Shown one piece after another: positions 10,843-57,577 of a stretch of DNA of 64,000 nucleotides (within the stretch, counting starts at the first letter, position 1; each line of letters begins with the position of its first letter). Location: the NCBI GenBank assembly GCA_002328835.1, contig DCWN01000043.1, positions 17,740 to 81,739 of the forward strand, in the 5' to 3' direction. A model generated the notes under the pieces. It was not told where the DNA came from, ran no database searches, and saw nothing but the letters and a program-made list of their open reading frames with translations. Position numbers and translations under genes: made by a program. Source of the DNA: Acidobacteria bacterium UBA2161 (GTDB taxonomy: Bacteria > Acidobacteriota > Vicinamibacteria > Vicinamibacterales > UBA823).

Positions 10843-11651
10843 AGGTCGTCTGCGCAGGCGATTGCGGCGTCGACCGCTACGTCGATCTGGGCATCGACCG
10901 GCCGGGCGGCAAGACCCTCAATGTCGCCGCGACTGCGCGGCAATTGTTTCCGCGATCGACCGACGTTAGCGTGGTGACCGCGTTGGGTACCGACGAGGAG
11001 GCGCGGTTCGTCGCGGCGGCAATTCGGGATCATGGTTTGACCGGGTCGGTCGTCCACCGGCGGGGGCGAACTTCCGTTCAGCAGATCGATCGGTCGCCGG
11101 CGGGTGAAAAGATCTTCCTCGAGTACGACCAGGGTGTGCTCGGCGGCTACCGTCCCGACCCCGCGGCCCGAGAGCTCATCGCCGCTGCCGATCTGCTCGT
11201 CACCCCGCTCTACGTCGAGATCCACGGCTTCTTCGATTCGGTCATCGCCACGCCCTCGGCCGGCCTCCGGGTCGTCGACTTTTCCGATCTCTCCGACTTC
11301 GACTCCGACCCGGCCATCGTCGACCGCTACGCCGATCGATTCGACATCGGGTTCTTCGGGCTGAGCCTGGCCGCGCCGAACCTCATCGCCTCGCTCGAAG
11401 TGCTGGCGCGTTTGCGCCGGAAGCTCTTCATCGTGACGCTCGGCGCCGACGGCAGCCTCGCGGTGGGAGGGGCGGACCGGATCCGATGTCAGGCGGTGCC
11501 GGTGCCGGCAGTCGTCGATACGACCGGCGCGGGCGATGTCTTCGCGGCCGGATTCCTCCGGGAGTACTGCACGTCGCGCGACGTCGCCGCCAGCCTCCGT
11601 GCCGGCAGCCTGGTGGCGGCCGAGTCGATTCAGCGTATAGGCGCGTTTTGA
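10839..11651 (+). CDS. PfkB-family carbohydrate/small-molecule kinase
   Basis: GTG 10839 overlaps the upstream stop (GTGA). C-terminal signature VVDTTGAGDVFAAGF. The upstream part of track ORF 10581.. overlaps btpA in another frame. Confidence 0.8.
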   Translation: MKVVCAGDCGVDRYVDLGIDRPGGKTLNVAATARQLFPRSTDVSVVTALGTDEEARFVAAAIRDHGLTGSVVHRRGRTSVQQIDRSPAGEKIFLEYDQGVLGGYRPDPAARELIAAADLLVTPLYVEIHGFFDSVIATPSAGLRVVDFSDLSDFDSDPAIVDRYADRFDIGFFGLSLAAPNLIASLEVLARLRRKLFIVTLGADGSLAVGGADRIRCQAVPVPAVVDTTGAGDVFAAGFLREYCTSRDVAASLRAGSLVAAESIQRIGAF

Positions 11652-12587
11652 CTAGCGGACTAGCAGCGGGCACGTCATGCAATGGGCGCCGCCGTTGCCT
11701 ATGAATAGCTCATTAGATGGGAACGTCGAGACGGTCCAGCCTCGGCTGCGCAGCCGATCGGCGATGCCGGTCGCCTGCGCGAAGCCGATCGCCTTCGTCC
11801 CGCGCTCGGTCACGACCACGTTGAGATGTCCGCCGAGGCGCTCGTCGTCCGAGATCGGCAGCCGCTCCACGCCGCGCGCTTCGAGGAACTCCTCGAACAT
11901 GACGTGCCGCGGCTCGGCGCGGCCAGCCTCGTGGAGCCAGCACGGGAAGGTCCGGAACGCCTCTTCGAAGATGAGGCCAAGCCGTTCGTCGAGCACCATG
12001 AAGATGCCGTCGATGTGGATGTAGCCGAACGGCAGCGGTACTTCGAGGAAGTACTTCACGTCGCGTCCGAGCACGAGCGCGCGGAGCGCGGCGGCGCCCT
12101 CCTGGTTGGCCCGGTCGCAGATCGATGCGACGACGGTGTCCTCACCGATCATCGTCACGCCGCCGCCTTCGAGGTAGCCGGGTGGCTCGATCGCGCCGAG
12201 CACGGGCACGCCCAATCGCTCGAAGGCCCGGCCCATCAGACGCTGATCGCCCCACCGCCCGCGCAGGTGCGGGCTCATGAGGACGGCGCCCGAGGCGAAG
12301 ACGGCCGCCAGGTCGCGTGTGTAGGTGACGTTGGGGCGTCGATTCAGGGTGGCGATGGCATCGTCGTCGGCGGCGAGGACATCGCTCAGGAAGACCGTGT
12401 CGACACCGTCAGCGTGGAAGCAGTCGACCATCGCGTCGTAGTCGCGGACGAACCCAGTGCGATCGACCGGTCGGTCGAAGTTGAACTCGCGCAGCGTCTG
12501 CTCCGTGACGAGGTCGAGTTCGGGGCCCGGCCGGTGCATTAGGACCCGCTCGAGCGTGCCGTATGCGGAGCGGACGCCGAAGGTCAT
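11652..12587 (-). CDS. Guanidino-group modifying enzyme (amidinotransferase / arginine deiminase / DDAH superfamily)
   Basis: Start MTFGVRSAYGTLERVLMHRPG (ATG comp. 12585-12587), overlapping the upstream TAA by 1 nt. C-terminal catalytic block GNGGAHCMTCPLLVR. The 668-aa track ORF is an artefactual upstream extension. Confidence 0.8.
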   Translation of the reverse strand: MTFGVRSAYGTLERVLMHRPGPELDLVTEQTLREFNFDRPVDRTGFVRDYDAMVDCFHADGVDTVFLSDVLAADDDAIATLNRRPNVTYTRDLAAVFASGAVLMSPHLRGRWGDQRLMGRAFERLGVPVLGAIEPPGYLEGGGVTMIGEDTVVASICDRANQEGAAALRALVLGRDVKYFLEVPLPFGYIHIDGIFMVLDERLGLIFEEAFRTFPCWLHEAGRAEPRHVMFEEFLEARGVERLPISDDERLGGHLNVVVTERGTKAIGFAQATGIADRLRSRGWTVSTFPSNELFIGNGGAHCMTCPLLVR

Positions 12588-13951
12588 TAGGACGCGCGCC
12601 CGCCCTGGCGGGTCAGCCAGAAGTAGACCGGAACGCCGGTGGCCGTGAGCGCCAGACCGATCAGCGTATCTTGCGAGTTGTAGATGACCGCGCTGACCAG
12701 GAACATCGCCATCACGCCCATGAAGACGAGCGGCACGACGGGGTACCCCGGTGTGCGATAGGTCCCGGCGCTGGGCGTGCGCCGGTGCCGGAGCGGGAAG
12801 ATCGCCGAGACCAGCAGGATGTTCGCTAGCTGAAGCGGGACCAGCAGGAACGTCACGAGCCGATCGAACGAGCCGAAGAACAGCAGTGCGACCGACGAGA
12901 GAATTGCCGTGAAGAGAATCGCACCGGACGGCACCGCCGTCGTCGGTGAGACGATCGCGAGTCCACGGAAGAACGTCCCAAGAAGGGTCGGGCGCGCCGC
13001 CGCCTCGTACTGCGCCGCGACGGTATAGATGATCCGCGGCAGCGTCATGACGAGGCCGCCCAGGGCGCCGAAGATCGACACCGTCATCAGGCCCGTCACC
13101 AGCCGTCCGCCCGTCGTGCCGAACGACAGTGTGGCGATTGTGGCGCCGATGGTCGTCGGTTCGGCCCGCATCGCATCGAGCGGGAGGACTCGCAGGAACG
13201 CGTAGTTCACGAGCAGGTAGAGCAGGGTGATACCGCCGACACCGAGCGCGAGTCCGCGCGGCAAGTTGCGGCGCGGTTCGTTGACTTCGCCCGCGACGTG
13301 CGTGACATCGAGCCAGCCGTCGTAGGTGAACAGCACGGCGGCCACGCCGAGGCCGACGAGGCGAAACAGGCCGACCCAGTCCCCCGACCCGGCGCCGACA
13401 CTCGACGCGCGCGGTGCGGCGTCGGCGAGAAAGAGCGCACCCCCGACCAGGCAGAGCAGTCCGAGGATCTTGGCCGCGGTCAGCGTTACCTGTGTTCGCC
13501 CGCCCCACGCGACACCGCGCAGGTTGATGAGCGTGAACCCGCTGATTGCGGCCACGCCCCAGACCGCGGCCGACGGGCCGGTGCCGCCGAGCAACTGGAC
13601 GAGGAATTCGCCGAAGACGATCGCCACGCCGGCGACCGAGCCCGGCCCGCTGACCCACATCTCCATCCAGACCTTGAGGAAGCCCCAGAACGGTCCGTAG
13701 CCTTCACGGATGATGTGGTACGTCGCCCCCGGCTGCGGCAGGAGCGTCGCGGTTTCGGCCAGCGTCAACGCGCCGCACAACGTGATGACGCCGCAGAGCG
13801 CCCAGAAGAAGTAGACCTGCGCCGGCGTCTGGGCGACGGCAGCCAGCTCGCCCGGCGTGAAGAAGATGCCCGAGCCGAGCATGTCGCCGACGACGATGGC
13901 GACGACGGCCGAGAGGCCGAGCTGGCGGCGCAGCGCGGGCGCGGAGCTCAT
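12587..13951 (-). CDS. APC-family amino acid permease
   Basis: Start MSSAPALRRQLGLSAVVAIVVGDMLGSGIFFTPGE (ATG comp. 13949-13951). About 12 TM. The longer track ORF start lies inside a repeat element. Confidence 0.85.
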   Translation of the reverse strand: MSSAPALRRQLGLSAVVAIVVGDMLGSGIFFTPGELAAVAQTPAQVYFFWALCGVITLCGALTLAETATLLPQPGATYHIIREGYGPFWGFLKVWMEMWVSGPGSVAGVAIVFGEFLVQLLGGTGPSAAVWGVAAISGFTLINLRGVAWGGRTQVTLTAAKILGLLCLVGGALFLADAAPRASSVGAGSGDWVGLFRLVGLGVAAVLFTYDGWLDVTHVAGEVNEPRRNLPRGLALGVGGITLLYLLVNYAFLRVLPLDAMRAEPTTIGATIATLSFGTTGGRLVTGLMTVSIFGALGGLVMTLPRIIYTVAAQYEAAARPTLLGTFFRGLAIVSPTTAVPSGAILFTAILSSVALLFFGSFDRLVTFLLVPLQLANILLVSAIFPLRHRRTPSAGTYRTPGYPVVPLVFMGVMAMFLVSAVIYNSQDTLIGLALTATGVPVYFWLTRQGGRAS

Positions 13952-13981
13952 CGGCCCAATACTAGTGGAAGTCCTGTTCCC

Positions 13982-14191
13982 GCGCGGGACTGGGCATTGC
14001 GCCGTCGATCCCGTCGGCGGCCGGCGACCAGGCGATTCGGGATCTTCCCAGCGTGTGAGCCACGGGTCGACAGGCCAAGCGTTCACGAATTCCGTTTCGG
14101 TGGTCGCACATCCAGGCGGCCGCCTCCCTAAGAAGGGATCGACCACCGCAAAGCCCAGCCCCGCGCCAGACCAAACGCCCAGCCCCGCGCC
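13982..14191. repeat. ~185-nt palindromic (long-hairpin) repeat, copy A, plus a duplicated 15-nt terminal arm
   Basis: Homologous over its whole length to the reverse complement of 38524..38711. There is a 34-nt identical block at 13990-14023, a central block GTGTGAGCCAYGGGTCGAC, and a 29-nt block at 14115-14143. Nested long-range complementarity: 13982-13995/14153-14166, 14004-14012/14135-14143, 14016-14023/14117-14124. GCCCAGCCCCGCGCC is repeated at 14153 and 14177. Confidence 0.85.
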
Positions 14192-14200
14192 GAGTGAGAG

Positions 14201-15664
14201 CTAGCTCCGTCGGAAGAACTTCTCGACCGCGGTCTGCGGCGCGGGCTGGGTGATCGGTGTCAGACCGACGATCAGGGCGAGGCTCAGCGCCATGCCGGGC
14301 ACAACAGGATGAATCGCGACGGCCCATCCGACCTCGGCCAGCGTGAGCCCGGTCCAGACGGCGGTGATGGCGAAGCCGCCGACGGCCGACGCCGTTGCGG
14401 CGGCCGGCGTCGTCCGCGGGGAGGTCAGTCCGAACAGGAGCGGGAAGAAGAAGGTTGCTCCGACCATCGCCACGGCGTAAGAGACGATGGCCAGGATCAG
14501 CGCGGGCGTGTTCAGCGCCGCGACGAGCGCGATCGCTCCGATCACGACGATCGTGACCCGCGAGATCCGCAGGTAGTGGCGCTCGTCGCGCGCGATGCCG
14601 CGTGGTTCGTGAACCGACTTCCGTAGGAAGTCGTGGGCGACCGCCGCACCCGAGAGCAACAGCAACGAGTCGGTCGTCGACATGGCCGCGCTGGCGATGC
14701 CGGTGAGCGCGATCGCCGAGGCGACCGGGCCGAGGACGGCGGCCGACAGCGCCGGGAACGCCTGATCCGGCAGGTCGATCTGGTCCCAGACGAGAATTCG
14801 CGCCGCGCCGCCGAGGTAGAGGTTGCCGTAGAGCATGAAGATGCTGATGAGCAGGCAGGTGGTCGGCAACGCGTAACGGGCCACCTTCGAATCGCGCGCG
14901 ACGAACACCTTCGTGAGCAGTTCAAGCCGCGTTGCGTAGGCGACGAACCAGACGAGCCACCACGACAGCAGGTAGCTCCAGGACCACGATGTCCCGGTGA
15001 CTGACGTCCAGCCCGGCGCCAACGCCTCCGCGCGCTGCATCACCGTCGCCAGGCCGCCGGCCGCCGCGTAGACCGCCGGCATCATGATGATGAGGCCGAT
15101 CCACATGAAGACGAACTGCAACACGTTCGTCCAGATGACGGCCAGCATGCCGCCCAGCGCGACGTAGAAGATGAAGAGTGCCGTGCCCAGCACCATCGAC
15201 GGCACGAGCGGGAATCCGAGCAGCCCTTCGAGGATCAGCCCCATCCCCCGGATCTGCGCGATGAGATAGACGATGCTCGACGCCGCGACGACGAAGGCGC
15301 TGAACGCCCGCAGCGTGTGGCTGCCGAACCGGTCGCCCATGTAGTCGGGCAGCGTGAACGCAGCGATCTCCCGTAGCTTCCTCGCGAAGAAGACGAGAAT
15401 GACTAGAAAGCCGAGCGCGAAGCTCATCAGCGGCAGGATCGCCACACCGCCGAACGCGCCGGCGAACGCGACGCCGCTCAGCACCGAGCCGCCGTGCATC
15501 ACGGCCGCCATCATCCCCAACGTCATCACAACGGTGCCGAACCGGCGTCCGGCGACCCAGAGGTCGGCCTCGCTCCGTTGCTGCCGCCCGGAGATGACTG
15601 CAATGGCGATGACGACAATCAGGTAGGCCGCGAAGACGGCCAGGCCGACGCTCGAGGGGGTCAT
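14201..15664 (-). CDS. Sodium:solute symporter (SSS family)
   Basis: 487-aa polytopic protein. The N-terminal AVISGRQQRSEADLWVAGRRFG block is typical of SSS transporters. Confidence 0.85.
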   Translation of the reverse strand: MTPSSVGLAVFAAYLIVVIAIAVISGRQQRSEADLWVAGRRFGTVVMTLGMMAAVMHGGSVLSGVAFAGAFGGVAILPLMSFALGFLVILVFFARKLREIAAFTLPDYMGDRFGSHTLRAFSAFVVAASSIVYLIAQIRGMGLILEGLLGFPLVPSMVLGTALFIFYVALGGMLAVIWTNVLQFVFMWIGLIIMMPAVYAAAGGLATVMQRAEALAPGWTSVTGTSWSWSYLLSWWLVWFVAYATRLELLTKVFVARDSKVARYALPTTCLLISIFMLYGNLYLGGAARILVWDQIDLPDQAFPALSAAVLGPVASAIALTGIASAAMSTTDSLLLLSGAAVAHDFLRKSVHEPRGIARDERHYLRISRVTIVVIGAIALVAALNTPALILAIVSYAVAMVGATFFFPLLFGLTSPRTTPAAATASAVGGFAITAVWTGLTLAEVGWAVAIHPVVPGMALSLALIVGLTPITQPAPQTAVEKFFRRS

Positions 15665-34519: not shown

Positions 34520-35658
34520 ACATCGGCATTGTCTGCTACGCGTCGGTCGGCGGCAGCGGCATCGTCGCCACCGAATTGGGCCGCGCGCTCGCGGGACGCG
34601 GGCACCAGGTCCGTCTGGTCAGCAGCGAGTTGCCGTTCCGCTTCGGCGACTATCATCCCGGCCTCGGTTTTCACCCGGTCCAGGCGCCGCTCTATCCTCC
34701 GCTGCGGGAACCGCAGTACTTGCTGTCGCTGGCGAACAAGCTCGTGCAGGTGTCGCGCGAGTTCTCGCTCGATGTCATTCACGCGCACTACGCGATTCCG
34801 CACGCCGCGGGCGCGTATCTGGCCCGGCAGATTCTTGCTACGAGTGGCGACGACCGCGTCCCGAAGGTCATCACGACGCTCCACGGCACCGATGTGACCC
34901 TGGTCGGCGCGGATCCGTCGTACTCTCGCACGGTCACGTTCTGCATCGATCAGTCGGACGGCGTCACCACCGTCTCGGAGAGCCTCAAGGCCGAAACGAT
35001 CCGCGAGTTGTCGGTCGGCGCCGACATCCGCGTGATCCCGAACTTCCTCGATTGCGACCGCTATCGCCGAGTGCCCGATCCGGAACTCCGCGCGCGGCTG
35101 GCGGGCGACGACCCGGCGACGAAGCTCGTCATCCACATGTCGAATTTCAGGCCCGTGAAGCGGGTCGACGCGGTGGTCGAGGTGTTCCGCCAGATCCACG
35201 CGCGCGTGCCCGCGCGGCTGGTCTTCGTGGGAGACGGCCCGGAGCTCGCGCCGGCCTGCGAGCAGGCACGCGAGTTGGGGCTGGGCGACGCGGTCGAGTC
35301 GCTCGGCGAGCAGGAGCAGATCGTGCCGCTCCTCTCGGCGGCCGATCTGGCCCTGCTGCCGTCGGCCACCGAAGGGTTCGGCCTTGCCGCGCTCGAGGCG
35401 ATGGCCTGCGAGACGCCGGTCATTGCCTCGCGGGTGGGCGGGCTGCCCGAGGTGATCGAGCACGACGTGAGCGGCTACCTGCATCCCCCCGAGGACCTGG
35501 CCGCGATGGCCGACAGCGCCGTCGCGCTGTTGACCGACGAGCCCCGGCATCGGGAGGTCGCCCTGGCGGGGCGCGACGTGGCGCTCAAGAAGTATTGCGC
35601 CGACGCGATCGTGCCGCGCTACGAGGACTACTACCGAGAGATCGTCGGCGTCCGCTGA
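34516..35658 (+). CDS. bshA: N-acetyl-alpha-D-glucosaminyl L-malate synthase BshA (GT4 glycosyltransferase)
   Basis: GTG 34516 (GTGA overlap). IGIVCYASVGGSGIVATELG, DVIHAHYAIPHA, TTLHGTDVT, HMSNFRPVKRV, VGDGPE, EGFGLAALEAMAC, GGLPEVIEHDVSG all track B. subtilis BshA block by block. Confidence 0.9.
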   Translation: MNIGIVCYASVGGSGIVATELGRALAGRGHQVRLVSSELPFRFGDYHPGLGFHPVQAPLYPPLREPQYLLSLANKLVQVSREFSLDVIHAHYAIPHAAGAYLARQILATSGDDRVPKVITTLHGTDVTLVGADPSYSRTVTFCIDQSDGVTTVSESLKAETIRELSVGADIRVIPNFLDCDRYRRVPDPELRARLAGDDPATKLVIHMSNFRPVKRVDAVVEVFRQIHARVPARLVFVGDGPELAPACEQARELGLGDAVESLGEQEQIVPLLSAADLALLPSATEGFGLAALEAMACETPVIASRVGGLPEVIEHDVSGYLHPPEDLAAMADSAVALLTDEPRHREVALAGRDVALKKYCADAIVPRYEDYYREIVGVR

Positions 35659-35687
35659 GCCGAGTGCGATATAGTCGAAGGCATCTC

Positions 35688-38390
35688 ATGCTCAGACAGC
35701 TAGCGGTCCGTGGTGAAAGTGCCGCGTGGCGAATGCCGCGGCACCTTCACCGCAGGCTGCTAAGCGCGTTCGTGCTGGTGCTCGTGGCCGGCGGGATTGC
35801 GGTGTCGCTCGTGCACGGTCAGATGCAGGTCCGGCCCGTGGCCGACGAGGAAGGTCACGCCGGCCTCGGCCTGGTACTTCGCAAGCTGACCACCGTCGGC
35901 TCGTTCATGATGGCGACGGCCCACCCCGACGACGAGAACAATGCGCTGCTGGCCCTGCTGAGCCACGGCCGGGGCATCCGCACCGCCCTGGTCTCGGCCA
36001 CGCGCGGTGACGGCGGGCAGAACGAGATCGGTGCCGAGTTGTTCGACGCGCTGGCGGTGTTGCGGACCGAGGAATTGCTCGCGGCGCATCGGTTCGACGG
36101 AGCCGAGCAGTACTTCACCCGTGCGGTCGATTTCGGTTACTCGTTCAGCGTGGAGGAAACGTTCGAGCGGTGGGGGCGGCAGGAGATCCTGGGCGACTTC
36201 GTGCGGATGATCCGCACGCTGCGTCCGGACGTCATCACCGGACTGCGTCCGACCGGCGGCGGCGGCCAGCACCACCAGGCGTCGGCCATCCTCGCGCAGG
36301 AAGCCTTCCGGGCCGCGGCCGACCCGACGCAGTTTCCCGAGCAGATTGCCGATGGGCTCCGACCGTGGCAAGCCAAGAAGTTCTACTTCAGCGCCGGATT
36401 CGGGTTTCGGGGCGCGCCCGCCGGTGCGGACACCGAGGGGCTCGAGACGATCGACCTTAGCGGTTTCGACCCGCTGCTCGGCCGTACCTACGCCGATATC
36501 GGGAGCGAAGCCCGGAGCATGCACAAGTGCCAGGGGATGCCGCAGGTCCTGCGGCTGCCGGGAGACTCCCGGGCTCGGTACACGCTGGCCGACACGACGA
36601 TCGCGAACCGTAACGGCGGCGACGACGCACCGCTGTTCGACGGCATCGACACGAGTCTGGCGAGCCTAATTCAGTACGCCGGTGCCCGGGCGCCGCGCGG
36701 ACTCGCCGTCGTCCTGACGAGCATCGCGCAGCAGGCGCGCGAGGCGCAGCGGCAGTTCAGCCAGTCGGGGATCGACGCGACACGGCAGCCGCTGTTGAAC
36801 GGTTTGGCTGCGGTCAGAAACCTGCGCGGCCAACTCCGGACGTTCGGGTTAAGCGACGATGCGGTGTACGAGATCGACTTCCGTCTCGCGCAGAAGGAAG
36901 AACAGTTCCAACGTGCAGTGATGCTGGCCCACGGCGTCCGCCTCGAGGCCCTGGCCGATGATGGCGTGGTGACGGCGGGGCAGCCGGTACGGGTGTCGGC
37001 GCTGGTGGCCAACCGCGGGGCGGCAGACGTGGCCGTGCGGCGCGTGTCGTTCGAAGGGTTCGACGGTGCGGCGCTGGGATGCGGTGCCGACGTCGTGACG
37101 GCCGGCGGCGTCTACACCTGCGACTCGTATCTCAGCGTACCCGCCGCGGCCGCACAGACGACGCCGTATTTTTCGCGGCTGCCGGACGCTGCGCGCTACC
37201 GCTTCGACGCCGACGCCGCGTTCGGACTGCCCTTCGAGCCGTCGCCCTTCCAGGCAACGTTTGCCATTGGCTTCTCTCGCGAACAGGTCTCGGTGCGGGT
37301 CCCCATCCAGTTCCGCTACGAGAAGGAGATCTTCAGCGGCGAGAAGCGGACCGAGCTGAACGTCGTGCCTCGCCTGGCGGTCCAGCTGTCTCCGGAGATC
37401 GCCGTCGCGCCCGTCCGGAGCGAGGCGCCCCGCGAGCTTCGCGTCATCGTCTCCAATCGCGGCGCGGACCCGACCCGCGCCGACGTGGCGCTCGACGTGC
37501 CGGCCGGGTGGCAGGTGGAACCCGCCGAGGCGTCGATCGCGTTTGCACGCGAGGACGAGGAGCGCACGGTGCGCTTCTTCGTCACCCCGGCGGCCGGCGT
37601 GGCCGTGGGCGATCACACCGTGACCGCACGGGTGACCAGCGATGGCGCCAGGTTCGAGCAGGGATACCAGGTCGTCGAGTACCCGCACACGCAGCCCAGA
37701 CACCTGACCACGACCGCCGAAGCGCGCATCAAGGTGATCGATGTCCTGGTCGCGTCGGATGTGCTGGTGGGGTACGTCATGGGCGCGGGCGACCAGATGC
37801 CTACCGCGATCGAGCAGCTGGGCGGTCGAGTCGAGCGGTTGAGTGGCGACGTCTTGGCCTGGGGCGACCTGTCGAAGTACGACCTCATCATCACGGGTGT
37901 GCGCGCCTACGAACTGGATGCCGACCTGCGCGCGCACAACGATCGTTTGATGAGCTACGTCGAAGACGGTGGCACGGTCATCGTGCAGTACAACAAGTTC
38001 GGCTTCAACGACGCGCAGTACGGACCGTTTCCGGCGCAGGTGAGTCGAAGCCGGATTACCGACGAGGGCGCTCCGGTGGAGCTGCTCGTGCCGAACCACC
38101 CGCTGTTCAACGAGCCGAATCCGATCGACGCAACCGTGTGGGACGGCTGGGTCCAGGAGCGCGGCCTGTACTTCCTGGGCGAGCGCGCGCCCCAGTACGT
38201 CGACCTGGTGTCGATGGAAGATCCGTTCGAGAACAACCCCGGCGTCAAGGACGGCGCGCTGGTCGAGGCGCGGGTGGGACAGGGGCGCTGGCTCTACGTC
38301 GCGCTCGGCCTCTGGCGGCAGCTGCCGGCAGGCACCGAGGGCGCCTACCGATTGCTCGCCAACCTCCTCAGCGTCGCCGACGCCCCGTAA
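35688..38390 (+). CDS. Large multidomain PIG-L/LmbE-family deacetylase (~900 aa) with C-terminal glutamine-amidotransferase-like/ThuA-like region
   Basis: N-terminal anchor, then MMATAHPDDENNALLALLSHGRGIRTALVSATRGDGGQNEIG (PIG-L motif). Long beta-rich middle. C-terminal IKVIDVLVASDVLVGYVMGAGD...YDLIITGVRAY...GGTVIVQYNK. The start is ATG 35688 or ATG 35733. The track ORF start 35052 overlaps bshA. Confidence 0.8.
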   Translation: MLRQLAVRGESAAWRMPRHLHRRLLSAFVLVLVAGGIAVSLVHGQMQVRPVADEEGHAGLGLVLRKLTTVGSFMMATAHPDDENNALLALLSHGRGIRTALVSATRGDGGQNEIGAELFDALAVLRTEELLAAHRFDGAEQYFTRAVDFGYSFSVEETFERWGRQEILGDFVRMIRTLRPDVITGLRPTGGGGQHHQASAILAQEAFRAAADPTQFPEQIADGLRPWQAKKFYFSAGFGFRGAPAGADTEGLETIDLSGFDPLLGRTYADIGSEARSMHKCQGMPQVLRLPGDSRARYTLADTTIANRNGGDDAPLFDGIDTSLASLIQYAGARAPRGLAVVLTSIAQQAREAQRQFSQSGIDATRQPLLNGLAAVRNLRGQLRTFGLSDDAVYEIDFRLAQKEEQFQRAVMLAHGVRLEALADDGVVTAGQPVRVSALVANRGAADVAVRRVSFEGFDGAALGCGADVVTAGGVYTCDSYLSVPAAAAQTTPYFSRLPDAARYRFDADAAFGLPFEPSPFQATFAIGFSREQVSVRVPIQFRYEKEIFSGEKRTELNVVPRLAVQLSPEIAVAPVRSEAPRELRVIVSNRGADPTRADVALDVPAGWQVEPAEASIAFAREDEERTVRFFVTPAAGVAVGDHTVTARVTSDGARFEQGYQVVEYPHTQPRHLTTTAEARIKVIDVLVASDVLVGYVMGAGDQMPTAIEQLGGRVERLSGDVLAWGDLSKYDLIITGVRAYELDADLRAHNDRLMSYVEDGGTVIVQYNKFGFNDAQYGPFPAQVSRSRITDEGAPVELLVPNHPLFNEPNPIDATVWDGWVQERGLYFLGERAPQYVDLVSMEDPFENNPGVKDGALVEARVGQGRWLYVALGLWRQLPAGTEGAYRLLANLLSVADAP
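35700..35762. mobile_element. Mini copy (two arms, no core) of the CTAGCGG..GTGCCG TIR element family
   Basis: CTAGCGGTCCGTGGTGAAAGTGCCGCG-(10-nt loop)-CGCGGCACCTTCACCGCAGGCTGCTAA. The arms match the TIRs of 43242..43407. It forms a ~27-bp imperfect hairpin with ATG 35733 in the apical loop. Confidence 0.75.
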
Positions 38391-38394
38391 TCAC

Positions 38395-38413
38395 TGTGGG
38401 GCTCTGCCCCACA
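38395..38413. repeat. GC hairpin 5 nt after the stop codon (REP-like/terminator-like), first unit of a repeat-filled spacer
   Basis: TGTGGGGC-TCT-GCCCCACA, 8-bp stem. The following ~100 nt (..CGCTCGCGGGGACTCAACGCCCCGCGCC..) resemble 53267..53330. Confidence 0.6.
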
Positions 38414-38523
38414 CCCCGGCTCGGTCGCTCGCGGGGACTCAACGCCCCGCGCCATTCCCTCGCGGGCCGCGCCGTGCGCGGCCTGTCTCCCTCACGAACC
38501 GCTAGCGCGAGCGATCACTTCCT

Positions 38524-38711
38524 GGCGCGAGGGTGGGTGTTGCGGTAGTCGATCCCTTCTTAGGGAGGCGGCCGCCCAGGCCTTCGACCGCCAGGACGGA
38601 TTCCGTGCAGGCACGGTCGGTCGACCCATGGCTCACACCTTGGAAACCCCTGAGATCGGTCTGTTAGACGGCCGCCGACGGGATCGACGGCGCAATGCCC
38701 AGCCTCGCGCC
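38524..38711. repeat. ~185-nt palindromic (long-hairpin) repeat, copy B (inverted relative to copy A)
   Basis: The reverse complement aligns with 13982..14166. Identical 34-mer at 38669-38702, central block at 38620-38638, 3' block at 38540-38576. Terminal arms 38524-38539/38697-38711 are complementary. Confidence 0.85.
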
Positions 38712-38729: not shown

Positions 38730-39668
38730 TTACTGAAGGATCGAAACCAGTGCGTGGTTGATTGTCGAGAAGCGGAAGTTGAAGCCGAGTGCGAGTGCCC
38801 TCGACGGCAGCACCCGCTGCCCGCCCAGCAGGAGCGCGTCGGCGAGTTCGCCCAGGGCGAGGCGCAGGGCGAACGGCGGTGCGGGCAGGAAGCTCGGCCG
38901 CCCGAGCGCATGGCCGAGGGCCTTCGAGAACTCCAGATTCGTCACCGGCGCCGGTGCCGTCGCGTTGAGTACTCCCGTGGCGGTCGGGGTGGCCAGCACC
39001 CACCTCACGAGATCCACCCAGTCGGCGCGATGAATCCAGGAGATATACTGCCGGCCCGAGCCGAGCGGTCCGCCCACGAACAACCTGAACGGCACCACCA
39101 TGCGTTCCAGCGGGCCGCCGTTGCGGTCGAGCGCGACACCTCCGCGCAGGATGACCAGCCGGTCGATGCTGGCCTCCAGCTCGCGCGCGGCCGTTTCCCA
39201 GTCGACGCAGCTTGCCGCGAGAAAATCGTCGCCGGGCGACGAGGCTTCGTCCAGTTCTTGATCGCCCCGATTACCGTAGTAGCCGACGGCCGAGGCGTTG
39301 ACGAGCGTTGGCGGCGGATTCGCCGCCGCCCGAATGGCGCCGACGACCGACTGGGTCGCGAGTACGCGGGAATCGCGGATACGCGCCTTCTGCGCGGTCG
39401 ACCACCGGCGCGCGGCGATCGATTCGCCCGTCAAGTTGACCACCGCGTCGGCTCCGTCGACGACCGCCGCCCACCGTCCGACGCCGTCCGTTCCGTCCGG
39501 CCGCCAGCCGGCGTTGGACAAGCCCGGCAGACCGGTGCCCGCCTCGTGGACGACCACACCAGGCTCGAGCGCTCGTGTCAGGACGACGACTTCATGGCCG
39601 TCCTGCAGCAGCGCATCGGCCAGCGCGCGTCCGAGGAATCCCGAGCCGCCGGGGATGACGACTTTCAT
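38730..39668 (-). CDS. YfcH-like epimerase-family SDR (NAD-binding domain + DUF1731)
   Basis: MKVVIPGGSGFLGRAL... ; ...GPLGSGRQYISWIHRADWV...LPSRALALGFNFRF are typical of the YfcH/SDR39U1 family. Confidence 0.85.
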   Translation of the reverse strand: MKVVIPGGSGFLGRALADALLQDGHEVVVLTRALEPGVVVHEAGTGLPGLSNAGWRPDGTDGVGRWAAVVDGADAVVNLTGESIAARRWSTAQKARIRDSRVLATQSVVGAIRAAANPPPTLVNASAVGYYGNRGDQELDEASSPGDDFLAASCVDWETAARELEASIDRLVILRGGVALDRNGGPLERMVVPFRLFVGGPLGSGRQYISWIHRADWVDLVRWVLATPTATGVLNATAPAPVTNLEFSKALGHALGRPSFLPAPPFALRLALGELADALLLGGQRVLPSRALALGFNFRFSTINHALVSILQ

Positions 39669-43196: not shown

Positions 43197-43241
43197 GCCG
43201 AGAGCGTATCGGAACTGTTCGGGTGGTGGAAGGTTAGGCGG

Positions 43242-43407
43242 CTAGCGGCCCGTGGTGAAGGTGCCGCTGCATTCGACCGCCGATGCATCCCGCCCTGCGG
43301 CGTTGCTCAGTGGTCGAATACTCCCGGTATGCTCCCGCTTCGCGTCTTGCAGGGCGGGCGCCTCGACGGTCTCGGTGCCACTCGGCACTTTCACCACGGA
43401 CCGCTAG
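43242..43407. mobile_element. MITE-like non-autonomous element, full-length copy (166 bp) with 25-nt terminal inverted repeats
   Basis: Left TIR CTAGCGGCCCGTGGTGAAGGTGCCG (43242-43266). Right TIR CGGCACTTTCACCACGGACCGCTAG (43384-43407; 1 nt shorter than the left arm as delimited). The internal core is itself self-complementary (CCCGCCCTGC/GCAGGGCGGG). No ORF. The right-hand CTAG supplies the TAG stop of the gene 43404..44060. Confidence 0.8.
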
Positions 43408-44060
43408 CGGCGGAGTGTGACGTCGCCGCTGAAGGTCTTGAAGCGCAGCTTTCTCCGATGCTGGGTTCGGCCGGTGTCATTCAGCACAGCTGCGAGGCGC
43501 CGACGGTTGCGGTGCCGGAAGATCAGCGGCTCGTCGCTCGACAGCCGCCCGGACTCCGACCGGAACTCGACATCCGCGGCGGCCGAGTCGGACAGCCGGA
43601 TCTCGACGTTGCCGCTGAACGTGCCGACATCATGATCGCCTCGCACCCGCTCGATGGCGACCGGGCTGCTGAAGACCCGCACTGCCAGGTCGGTGTCGCG
43701 CGGCACTTCGATCTCGAAGTCCGTCTCGACGACGTCCCCCTTGTCAGAACGGAACCAGTCTCGCCATGTGCGCCGTAACTGGTTGGCGACGATCTCGATG
43801 ACCGCGCGCGACTCCCTGATCTCGAGCTTGACCCTCGACAGCAGATCGTGCGGCGCCCGCCGCACGGCCCGGATCACCACTTCGTCGCGGTCGGTGCCCG
43901 TGATCCGGACATGACCGGAAAAAGTCCTCAGTTCAACTCGTCCGCCGTCGCCAAACGGAATGACACGATCGATCCGTTCGGTCGTCTGGGCGGCGAGGCC
44001 GCCACCGGCCACGACCAGACCGAACAGCGCGACGATCAAAAGACGAAGACCGCGTCCCAT
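43404..44060 (-). CDS. DUF4097-like beta-strand repeat protein (putative adhesin fold), secreted/anchored
   Basis: Start MGRGLRLLIVALFGLVVAGGG (ATG comp. 44058-44060). Repeated ..FSGHVRITG.., ..FSGNVEIRL.., ..FSGDVTLRR units. Confidence 0.7.
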   Translation of the reverse strand: MGRGLRLLIVALFGLVVAGGGLAAQTTERIDRVIPFGDGGRVELRTFSGHVRITGTDRDEVVIRAVRRAPHDLLSRVKLEIRESRAVIEIVANQLRRTWRDWFRSDKGDVVETDFEIEVPRDTDLAVRVFSSPVAIERVRGDHDVGTFSGNVEIRLSDSAAADVEFRSESGRLSSDEPLIFRHRNRRRLAAVLNDTGRTQHRRKLRFKTFSGDVTLRR

Positions 44061-57545: not shown

Positions 57546-57547
57546 GC

Positions 57548-57577
57548 CTAGCAGCCCGCGGTGAGTGTGCCGCGGCT
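57548..57577. mobile_element. Solo arm of the CTAGCGG..GTGCCG TIR family, embedded in the 3' end of a gene
   Basis: CTAGCAGCCCGCGGTGAGTGTGCCGCGGC matches the TIR consensus. Its reverse complement is about 28/33 identical to the right arm of the mini copy at 35735-35765. No partner arm nearby. Confidence 0.55.

Follow-up and report, generated by a model that had tools for sequence, protein, structure and literature searches.

An uncatalogued family of dispersed ~187-bp hairpin repeats, probably of the REPIN/MITE type, in a marine, Acidobacteria-like lineage

A new family of dispersed hairpin repeats

The 64,000-nt stretch of the genome of Acidobacteria bacterium UBA2161 that was analyzed here (contig DCWN01000043.1; hereafter referred to as the window) contains two copies, A and B, of a palindromic, intergenic element of ~187 bp in total length. 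We interpret them as members of a dispersed and lineage-restricted family of non-autonomous hairpin repeats that resemble REPINs (paired repetitive extragenic palindromic (REP) sequences forming a hairpin) and MITEs (miniature inverted-repeat transposable elements), a reading to which we assign a probability of about 0.6. An initial annotation of this DNA had offered two readings, a structured RNA and a palindromic DNA repeat of the BIME/MITE type. The latter fits the data better, because the element is present at ten or more dispersed loci, is missing in the nearest relatives at three orthologous sites, is inverted in a congeneric genome (L001), and is enriched in the spacers between convergent genes; the structured RNA fits less well, and nothing requires it. 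The family is real and non-random, and it was previously uncatalogued. Neither Rfam nor the plasmid and phage collections contain it. It is a new member of the familiar REPIN/MITE/ERIC-like kind of bacterial palindromic repeats rather than a new kind of RNA.

When the forward orientation of the element is defined as the strand that reads CTGGGCATTGCGCCGTCGATCCC, copy A extends from 13981 to 14167 on the plus strand (nhmmer 170.9 bits; covariance model R1 199.8 bits on the plus strand and 48.8 bits on the minus strand), and copy B from 38523 to 38711 on the minus strand (nhmmer 168.5 bits; R1 191.3 bits). These boundaries give the best family-wide fit and slightly refine those originally drawn. 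The previously reported end-to-end homology of the two copies corresponds to a column identity of 84% in our alignment, and the shared blocks on which it was based are found as described. An identical 34-mer occurs exactly twice in the window (13990-14023, plus strand; 38669-38702, minus strand), as does a 29-nt block (14115-14143, plus strand; 38548-38576, minus strand), with no occurrence of either expected, and the apical block GTGTGAGCCAYGGGTCGAC (14053-14071, plus strand; 38620-38638, minus strand) is confined within the window to copies A and B. None of 100 shuffles yielded two or more matches to the 34-mer or the 29-mer. The interiors of the two copies are just 63-70% identical. All four strands of copies A and B form the postulated nested long hairpin, with free energies between -109 and -123 kcal/mol and z-scores between -3.1 and -7.0 relative to dinucleotide shuffles, none of which (0/200) folded as well.

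Further members of the family were recovered by two scans with exact 21-mers. One, with a word from the right arm against species-representative genomes (one per species), detected a single locus, L001, a metagenome-assembled genome (MAG) with a complete copy of the element. The other, with a word from the left arm against metagenome contigs, returned 16 loci, nine of which hold complete or end-truncated copies that represent seven distinct contexts after L005 is paired with L017, and L011 with L012. The copies recovered from marine metagenome contigs are those of L005/L017, L006, L008, L011/L012, L013, L014, L015 and L016; seven distinct loci stem from one metagenome assembly (CEQE01 contigs). 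Seven of the 16 matches (L002-L004, L007, L009 and L010 among them) are chance occurrences within coding sequences, and the same holds for the single match of the arm word to a viral contig, which lies in a collagen-like coding repeat. The gene context differs at each locus, and at least ten dispersed loci are known overall. The possibility that only the two window copies exist, as a local duplication, which the initial annotation had raised against its own proposal, is thereby contradicted; we give practically no credence to a chance palindrome or to a duplication confined to the window, both of which are refuted by the shuffles (0/100) and by the nine additional loci elsewhere.

The contigs carrying metagenome copies are mostly marine (Tara-type) with a G+C content of 65-70%, and the nearest named homologues of the proteins encoded next to the element come from MAGs labelled 'Acidobacteria bacterium'. 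It should be noted that L001 (JASLOV010000301.1) is entitled a Dehalococcoidia bacterium despite sharing 88-93% DNA identity with the window, in conflict with L025 (GCA_002713265.1), and that the organism-named homologues of the window proteins are mostly labelled Acidobacteria. One of the two bins, L001 or L025, is probably mislabelled.

Searches with nhmmer and with the covariance model scored the forward strand of the copies at 154-204 bits and the reverse strand at 32-54 bits; the orientation calls are secure, because the covariance model separates the two strands by ~140 bits. Neither additional copies nor more strongly diverged ones were detected with nhmmer --max, fuzzy matching or covariance model R1 in 330-500 kb of related DNA. 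In agreement with the initial annotation, in which the element was not recognized as a known RNA family, a search of the entire window against Rfam gave no match at the gathering thresholds; with E-values up to 10, the sole match on the element was a spurious plant miRNA (18 bits against a threshold of 297 bits), and L001 gave none. Likewise, blastn searches of plasmid and phage collections returned no match to the element.

Conserved arms, a variable interior of constant length, and a consensus fold

The architecture of the element is best described from copy A. Its left arm (43 nt; 13981-14023, plus strand) holds GTCGATCCC and GGCGGCCG, which are paired with the right arm. A variable interior of 90 nt follows (14024-14113), with GTGTGAGCCA at 14053-14062 and GGTCG at 14103-14107. 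The right arm (54 nt; 14114-14167) contains an extra conserved bulge, CTCCCTAAGAA, for which a small local hairpin (TCCCT/AGGGA) is also possible. In an alignment of 11 copies (A2), ten of them distinct, the mean pairwise identity amounts to 0.92 for the left arm, 0.88 for the right arm and 0.59 for the interior. Despite this low identity, the interior is 89-93 nt long in all ten distinct copies; the motif GTGTGAGCCA is kept, and GGTCGA is less strictly preserved (6/10 distinct copies). As part of the left arm served as the search word for the metagenome copies, its identity is free of ascertainment for L001 only; arm conservation is nevertheless not solely a product of ascertainment, because the right arm was not used in finding the metagenome copies, nor the left arm in finding L001.

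The arms are imperfect inverted copies of each other, and each copy carries the outermost 20 nt, GGCGCGAGNCTGGGCNTTGCG, at its two ends as terminal inverted repeats. Two asymmetries between the arms are conserved: a CC opposite a CTA, and a bulge of 8-10 nt, CTCCCWA(M)AGRA, present in the right arm only. The consensus fold comprises 47 pairs with 95% of all cells paired, and helices 1-3 are 96-98% paired. Double changes occur at seven pairs, compared with 2.5 in column shuffles, and none of 500 shuffles reached that number; five of these seven pairs lie in the outermost helix. The compensatory exchange in the outer stem that was singled out in the initial annotation, G:C in copy A for A:T in copy B, is genuine (columns 7 and 189 of alignment A2 are AU in seven copies and GC in one). 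In L015, both ends are altered, with GCGCGAG/CTCGCGC changed to ACACGAG/CTCGTGT. Helices 2 and 3 are invariant and hence uninformative in either direction. The mutational process by which one arm of a quasi-palindrome is copied from the other through template switching is well established; the covariation in the outer helix is equally expected from such template switching or from a single protein that reads both arms, and taken alone it is no argument for an RNA.

The reverse strand folds better than the forward strand (alifold -74.8 versus -61.5 kcal/mol; lower energy in 9/11 single folds), because a conserved A.C mismatch on the forward strand becomes a G.U pair on the reverse strand. As a test of which strand is functional, this comparison is weak, since the excess of G.U pairs on the reverse strand traces back to one or two family-wide differences.

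Several other potential features of the element were considered and discarded. The interior lengths of 89, 90, 91 and 93 nt keep no reading frame, which argues against a small conserved open reading frame (ORF). A sigma-54-like sequence on the reverse strand, TGGCTCACAC-N-YTGG, has GG in place of the essential -12 GC, and the complementarity of the interior to other sequences of the window is limited to short G+C-rich chance matches, so that a guide-like role was dismissed. Considered as a genome-wide tag, GTCGATCCC is not over-represented in the window: it occurs five times against an expectation of 2.2, and four of the five occurrences are located in copies A and B. As a separate observation, the contigs L011 and L012 have only two mismatches in 1284 nt, at L011 positions 1184 and 1204, both in the variable interior, which suggests a local mutation hotspot or an assembly mix of different copies.

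Presence, absence and orientation at orthologous sites

The element is missing from the corresponding position in close relatives at three sites. At the copy-A site it is absent from L019/L020 (symporter 91% identical), in which a spacer of ~40 nt separates the symporter and permease genes, and from L021/L022 (symporter 90% identical), in which these two genes overlap. The copy-B site is devoid of it in L032/L033, L034/L035 and L036, whose epimerases are 93%, 81% and 78% identical, respectively, and the site of L016 is empty in L037/L038 (89% identical), with a spacer of 17 nt. The closest relatives at these three element-less sites have flanking proteins that are 89-93% identical.

A different hairpin insertion is found at the L016-orthologous site in L039 (11470-11590) and L040 (~11330-11450), which are 82-85% identical. 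It is positioned just upstream of a terminator-like hairpin that is also present in L016, and contains GTCGATCCC twice in direct orientation, with a CCCTCTCCC(C)...GGGAGAGGG hairpin after each occurrence. That GTCGATCCC is common to both kinds of insertion hints that tagged hairpin repeats form a wider group in this lineage.

The MAG L001 and the window are congeneric, with 88-93% nucleotide identity across shared genes; the L001 symporter is 96.9% identical to that of the window, and the third codon positions are 85.6% identical. The copy-A site of L001 is also occupied by the element, which is inverted there relative to copy A. The interior of the L001 copy has an identity of 0.59-0.63 to that of copy A, which is the level found between paralogues, and copy A is closest to the L016 copy (0.74). 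On the symporter side, both the window and L001 retain a short end remnant together with GTTTGGTCT. The inversion and the paralogue-level divergence of the interior indicate that, after the divergence of the two species, the copy-A site was used again or its element was exchanged for another. Five same-strain contigs obtained from different samples display one orientation only and have zero differences through the element. A sixth, L031, ends (11543) 44 nt into the element, and L013, L006 and L008 are metagenome copies that lie 0-105 nt from contig ends; contig ends within or near the element are as expected for a repeat that breaks assemblies.

Placement relative to genes and neighbouring hairpins

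Among the seven loci at which both flanks can be read, six place the element in a convergent 3'-3' spacer (binomial P ~0.001 against an expectation of 25%), and L006 probably adds an eighth locus of the same type. The forward strand begins 0-45 nt downstream of a same-strand stop codon in 9/11 loci. The element is placed almost exclusively where insertions are harmless, a short distance (0-45 nt) past a stop codon and mostly between convergent genes. No direct repeat of at least 3 nt that would qualify as a target-site duplication was consistent across ten copies, even when the boundaries were shifted by up to 4 nt, and neither a sigma-70-like promoter nor a canonical terminator was found in the element. 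The profile of a plain MITE, as sketched in the initial annotation, is matched in part only: the copies vary in orientation, as such a MITE would, but they lack a target-site duplication, and the double changes in the outer stem exceed those of the shuffles.

G+C-rich terminator-like hairpins without T tracts, such as GGCCGCGCACGGCGCGGCC, adjoin the right end of the element in the window (38395-38520) and in the flanks of L014, L016, L008 and L011, and the element tends to have a stop codon on one side and such a hairpin on the other. As this is the position of most copies, their forward strand is expected to belong to the 3' untranslated region (3' UTR).

Weighing the possible explanations

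The turnover at orthologous sites, the free orientation, the location in harmless spacers and the existence of other hairpin-repeat families in the same genomes jointly argue for a repeat whose spread or exchange occurs at the level of DNA. We envision that a protein acting in trans, with its gene elsewhere in the genome, would use the arms of the element to copy or exchange it. The most likely candidate would be an HUH/Y1 (RAYT- or TIRYT-like) transposase that works on hairpins of single-stranded DNA; it is preferable to a DDE transposase, because there is no target-site duplication. Homologous exchange between copies via the nearly symmetric outer 20 nt may account for the inversion or replacement at the copy-A site of L001. 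A transcribed copy would add a hairpin of about -105 kcal/mol to a 3' UTR or an operon spacer, where, by analogy with REP/BIME and ERIC sequences, it would serve as a barrier to exonucleases, as a site of processing or as a terminator. By the same analogy, the hairpin of copy A should protect the upstream message from 3'-5' decay; cleavage of the hairpin, or a reduction of read-through by it, could also lower the expression of the permease relative to that of the symporter. Such an effect would uncouple two transporters whose genes are adjacent or overlapping in relatives.

Several points weigh against the DNA-repeat interpretation. Neither the 64-kb window (~40 proteins scanned, plus precomputed Pfam tables) nor the vicinity of any copy contains a transposase or recombinase gene, and the mobilizing protein is wholly inferred, since no locus has the arms flanking a gene. 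The copy number appears low for a REPIN, of which a genome usually holds tens to hundreds, with two copies in the 64-kb window, about ten loci for the exact 21-mer across the whole metagenome collection, and none in ~150 kb from the nearest relatives searched with the profile and the covariance model. The arms are longer than those of classical REPs, and the GTAG tag occurs in just five of the ten distinct copies. Insertion and loss in the relatives are indistinguishable at the single-base level, as the intergenic DNA is too diverged for the exact empty site to be mapped. Finally, a purely selfish element would need neither a spacer of constant length nor an apical motif, and these features hint at an added constraint.

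That constraint could be provided by a host-selected structured RNA, either a 3'-UTR or intercistronic module or a processed small RNA, whose scatter would reflect recruitment to many genes; the arms would then form the closing helix, and the conserved bulges and the apical GUGUGAGCCA would be protein- or RNA-binding sites. Much of the anatomy accords with it: the arms are far more conserved than the interior, the interior keeps to a length of 89-93 nt and preserves a 10-nt motif although the rest of it drifts, the outer helix has double changes, and the unpaired bulge CTCCCWA(M)AGRA is conserved on one arm only. Moreover, the forward strand is almost certainly transcribed, given its position 0-45 nt after a same-strand stop codon in 9/11 loci, and the reverse strand gains conserved G.U pairs and folds better (-74.8 vs -61.5 kcal/mol). 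On the other hand, the strand that folds better, the reverse strand, is not the one most often co-directional with the adjacent gene; neither is consistently sense, and the two congeneric genomes differ in strand at the only co-directional locus. In addition, the element is missing from the same sites in the nearest relatives and matches no Rfam family at E-values up to 10, the invariant helices 2 and 3 are neutral, and the covariation of palindromic arms is equally expected from a shared DNA-binding protein or template-switch repair. We therefore regard a structured RNA as unlikely. Quite unlikely, in our view, is a related proposal in which the copies are under purifying selection, with the invariant arms, the one-sided bulge, the spacer length and GTGTGAGCCA forming a platform for a dedicated protein, and the fast-changing spacer segments, in which both differences between L011 and L012 fall, holding copy-specific information. 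If true, the element would not be a decaying repeat; it would represent a new class of element, either a 3'-UTR RNA or a single-stranded DNA, built of a scaffold and a variable region.

The convergent spacers at six of the seven fully readable loci and the high stability of the hairpin on both strands would also suit a bidirectional, orientation-independent transcription terminator or insulator that the host keeps between convergent genes, but we see only a slim chance for it. No T/U tract follows either arm, and a terminator scan was empty at copy B; a separate, conserved terminator-like hairpin adjoins the element at copy B, L014 and L016, that of L016 being shared with L039 and L040. Relatives do without the element at the same sites, and copy A lies within a gene pair that is operon-like in relatives. 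An inverton, whose arms would be recombinase sites and whose flipping interior would switch a downstream gene on and off, is highly improbable. Such a switch might produce what is seen immediately upstream of the permease gene, where the elements of the window and L001 share a site but have opposite orientations, and in L008, whose copy is oriented like copy A and lies upstream of a gene start by ~20-40 nt. The five same-strain contigs from different samples, however, have a single orientation and zero differences, and the contrast between the window and L001 is not a simple flip, as their interiors differ as much as those of paralogues. There is also no sigma-70-like promoter in or beside the element, no invertase or recombinase is encoded in the window, and most copies have no downstream gene to control.

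Genes flanking the window copies

Copy A resides between two minus-strand genes, and an mRNA spanning it would thus bear the reverse strand of the element. Upstream lies a gene for a sodium:solute symporter of the SSF family (14201-15664; Pfam PF00474, E 7e-46), and downstream a gene for an APC-type amino-acid permease (12587-13951; PF13520, E 3e-43). The intercistronic position reported for copy A is correct, with 29-30 nt between the start of the element and the permease ATG at 13951. So is the duplication of its terminal arm: the 15-nt sequence GCCCAGCCCCGCGCC occurs both at 14153-14167 and at 14177-14191, and the duplicated arm ends 9-10 nt from the symporter stop codon at 14201-14203. The segment from 14168 to 14191 (plus strand), composed of AGACCAAAC and then the 15-nt repetition of the right end, resembles what is left of an element end or a piece duplicated from one; it has a weak terminator-like score on the minus strand. 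A 15-mer at 255-269 that is identical to the right end of the element lies within a coding region and was taken as a chance match.

The permease is called as a 454-aa protein starting from 13951 in the same-strain contigs, and a mechanically predicted 519-aa ORF (12587-14146, minus strand) that extends it is spurious in the stretch within the element. Another such ORF, of 121 aa (13962-14327, minus strand), also runs through copy A, and both represent an annotation hazard. The sequence CTAGTATTGGGC (minus strand, 13955-13966) is located 4-5 nt before the permease ATG. The word TAGTATTGGGC is kept just 5' of the permease start in the window and in L019, with the variant TAGTATTG in L001 and TACTATTGC at this position in L022, and the rest of the spacer is unalignable. 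TAGTATTGGGC could be the -10 box of a leaderless transcript or a translation signal.

Copy B lies between the convergent 3' ends of two genes. One codes for an epimerase/DUF1731 (TIGR01777-like) protein (38730-39668, minus strand; PF08338, PF01370), with its stop codon 18 nt before the element. The other, 132 nt away, codes for a PIG-L/NPCBM_assoc protein identified through Pfam (35052-38390, plus strand). Orthologues of the latter are 880-893 aa long, and its true start is probably located further in than the mechanical ORF indicates.

Other repeat elements in these genomes

A second, unrelated palindromic family is represented in the window at 35699-35767 (plus strand) and 43238-43408 (minus strand). 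Its two members share the ends GCTAGCGGTCCGTGGTGAAAGTGCCG...CGGCACCTTCACCACGGGCCGCTAGC; one is a hairpin of 69 nt, the other a copy of 171 nt with an interior of ~100 nt, and a weaker end-like match is found at 57547-57572. A third, conserved and G+C-rich structured element, CCGCGGGTGGCGCCGGGT.GGGGGCCCCCC.CGGGCGCGGAGG ... GAGCACCCGTGGGGGAAG.CCGGCGACAGGACCCGCGG, is present in L001 (7815-7950), where it directly adjoins the hairpin repeat upstream of the permease gene, and in L036 (10985-11080), with partial copies in L019 (15494-15636) and L015 (8978-8996). It has no Rfam match at E-values up to 10.

Comparison with known repeat systems

Imperfect palindromes with conserved asymmetric bulges and a variable center are also characteristic of integron attC sites, which are recognized as folded single strands. 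The GTTGCGG/CCGCAAC of the element violates the required GTTRRRY/RYYYAAC core sites, however, and the copies are scattered among housekeeping genes, with neither cassette arrays nor an integrase nearby; an assignment to attC was consequently rejected. With the ERIC/IRU, YPAL and BIME-type repeats of enterobacteria, which are 127-170 bp in length and thought to affect mRNA stability and processing, the element has in common that it is a long imperfect palindrome found in transcribed intergenic regions in either orientation. It has no sequence relationship to these repeats, its hosts belong to another phylum, and a layout of hyper-conserved arms and variable spacer is not known to be typical of these families.

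DDE-derived MITEs, such as the Correia elements of Neisseria, resemble the element in their size of ~190 bp, their terminal inverted repeats, their intergenic location, their presence or absence between relatives and their co-transcription into mRNA hairpins. Unlike MITEs, the element lacks a target-site duplication, and its interior is far more diverged than its ends, which is unexpected if a master copy had recently transposed. The search for an insertion sequence whose ends match was negative, as there was no similarity to the arms beside any transposase gene in ~500 kb of related loci; this includes the rve, IS66, IS630 and Transposase_mut genes of these loci.

The closest parallel is provided by REPINs and REP dimers (Bertels & Rainey 2011, PMC3116915; Di Nocera et al. 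2013, PMC3733652). There are clear differences. The arms of the element measure 43-54 nt, whereas REPs have 20-40 nt, and do not look like clean stem-loops that bear an unpaired tag; a small local hairpin exists in the right arm only. The spacer of ~90 nt lies at the upper end of the reported range and has a conserved motif of its own, the apparent copy number is low, and no RAYT or TIRYT gene, which in REPIN systems is single-copy and has the repeat on its flanks, is linked to the element, be it in the window or in the fetched loci. The similarities are nevertheless extensive. In REP head-to-head dimers, spacers of 20-100 bp are conserved in length and not in sequence, and these dimers are found downstream of genes, between convergent or unidirectional genes (PMC3733652). 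The element likewise consists of two conserved inverted units that form one long hairpin, keeps its spacer length over its sequence (0.92 and 0.88 for the arms, 0.59 for the interior), and occurs downstream of genes, between convergent or co-directional genes. It is inherited vertically within a restricted lineage and, as in REPINs, there is no target-site duplication. One arm contains CGTC, which precedes GATCCC in the left arm, inside the search word, and in half of the copies the other arm contains GTAG, which precedes TCGATCCC (5/10 distinct copies).

This family extends REPIN/MITE-like hairpin repeats to an uncultured marine, Acidobacteria-like lineage, and its conserved arms and variable spacer of constant length make it a clean case for asking what keeps such repeats intact. 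A very stable hairpin between symporter and permease genes that are adjacent or overlapping in sister genomes is also a natural experiment, and annotators should be aware that the element breaks assemblies and causes spurious ORF extensions. RAYT-like tyrosine transposases flanked by long inverted repeats have been described, with a distinct group in Acidobacteria (PMC3733652). If the protein that mobilizes the element is found, it would help to decide whether tyrosine (HUH) transposases service long hairpin repeats outside the Proteobacteria.

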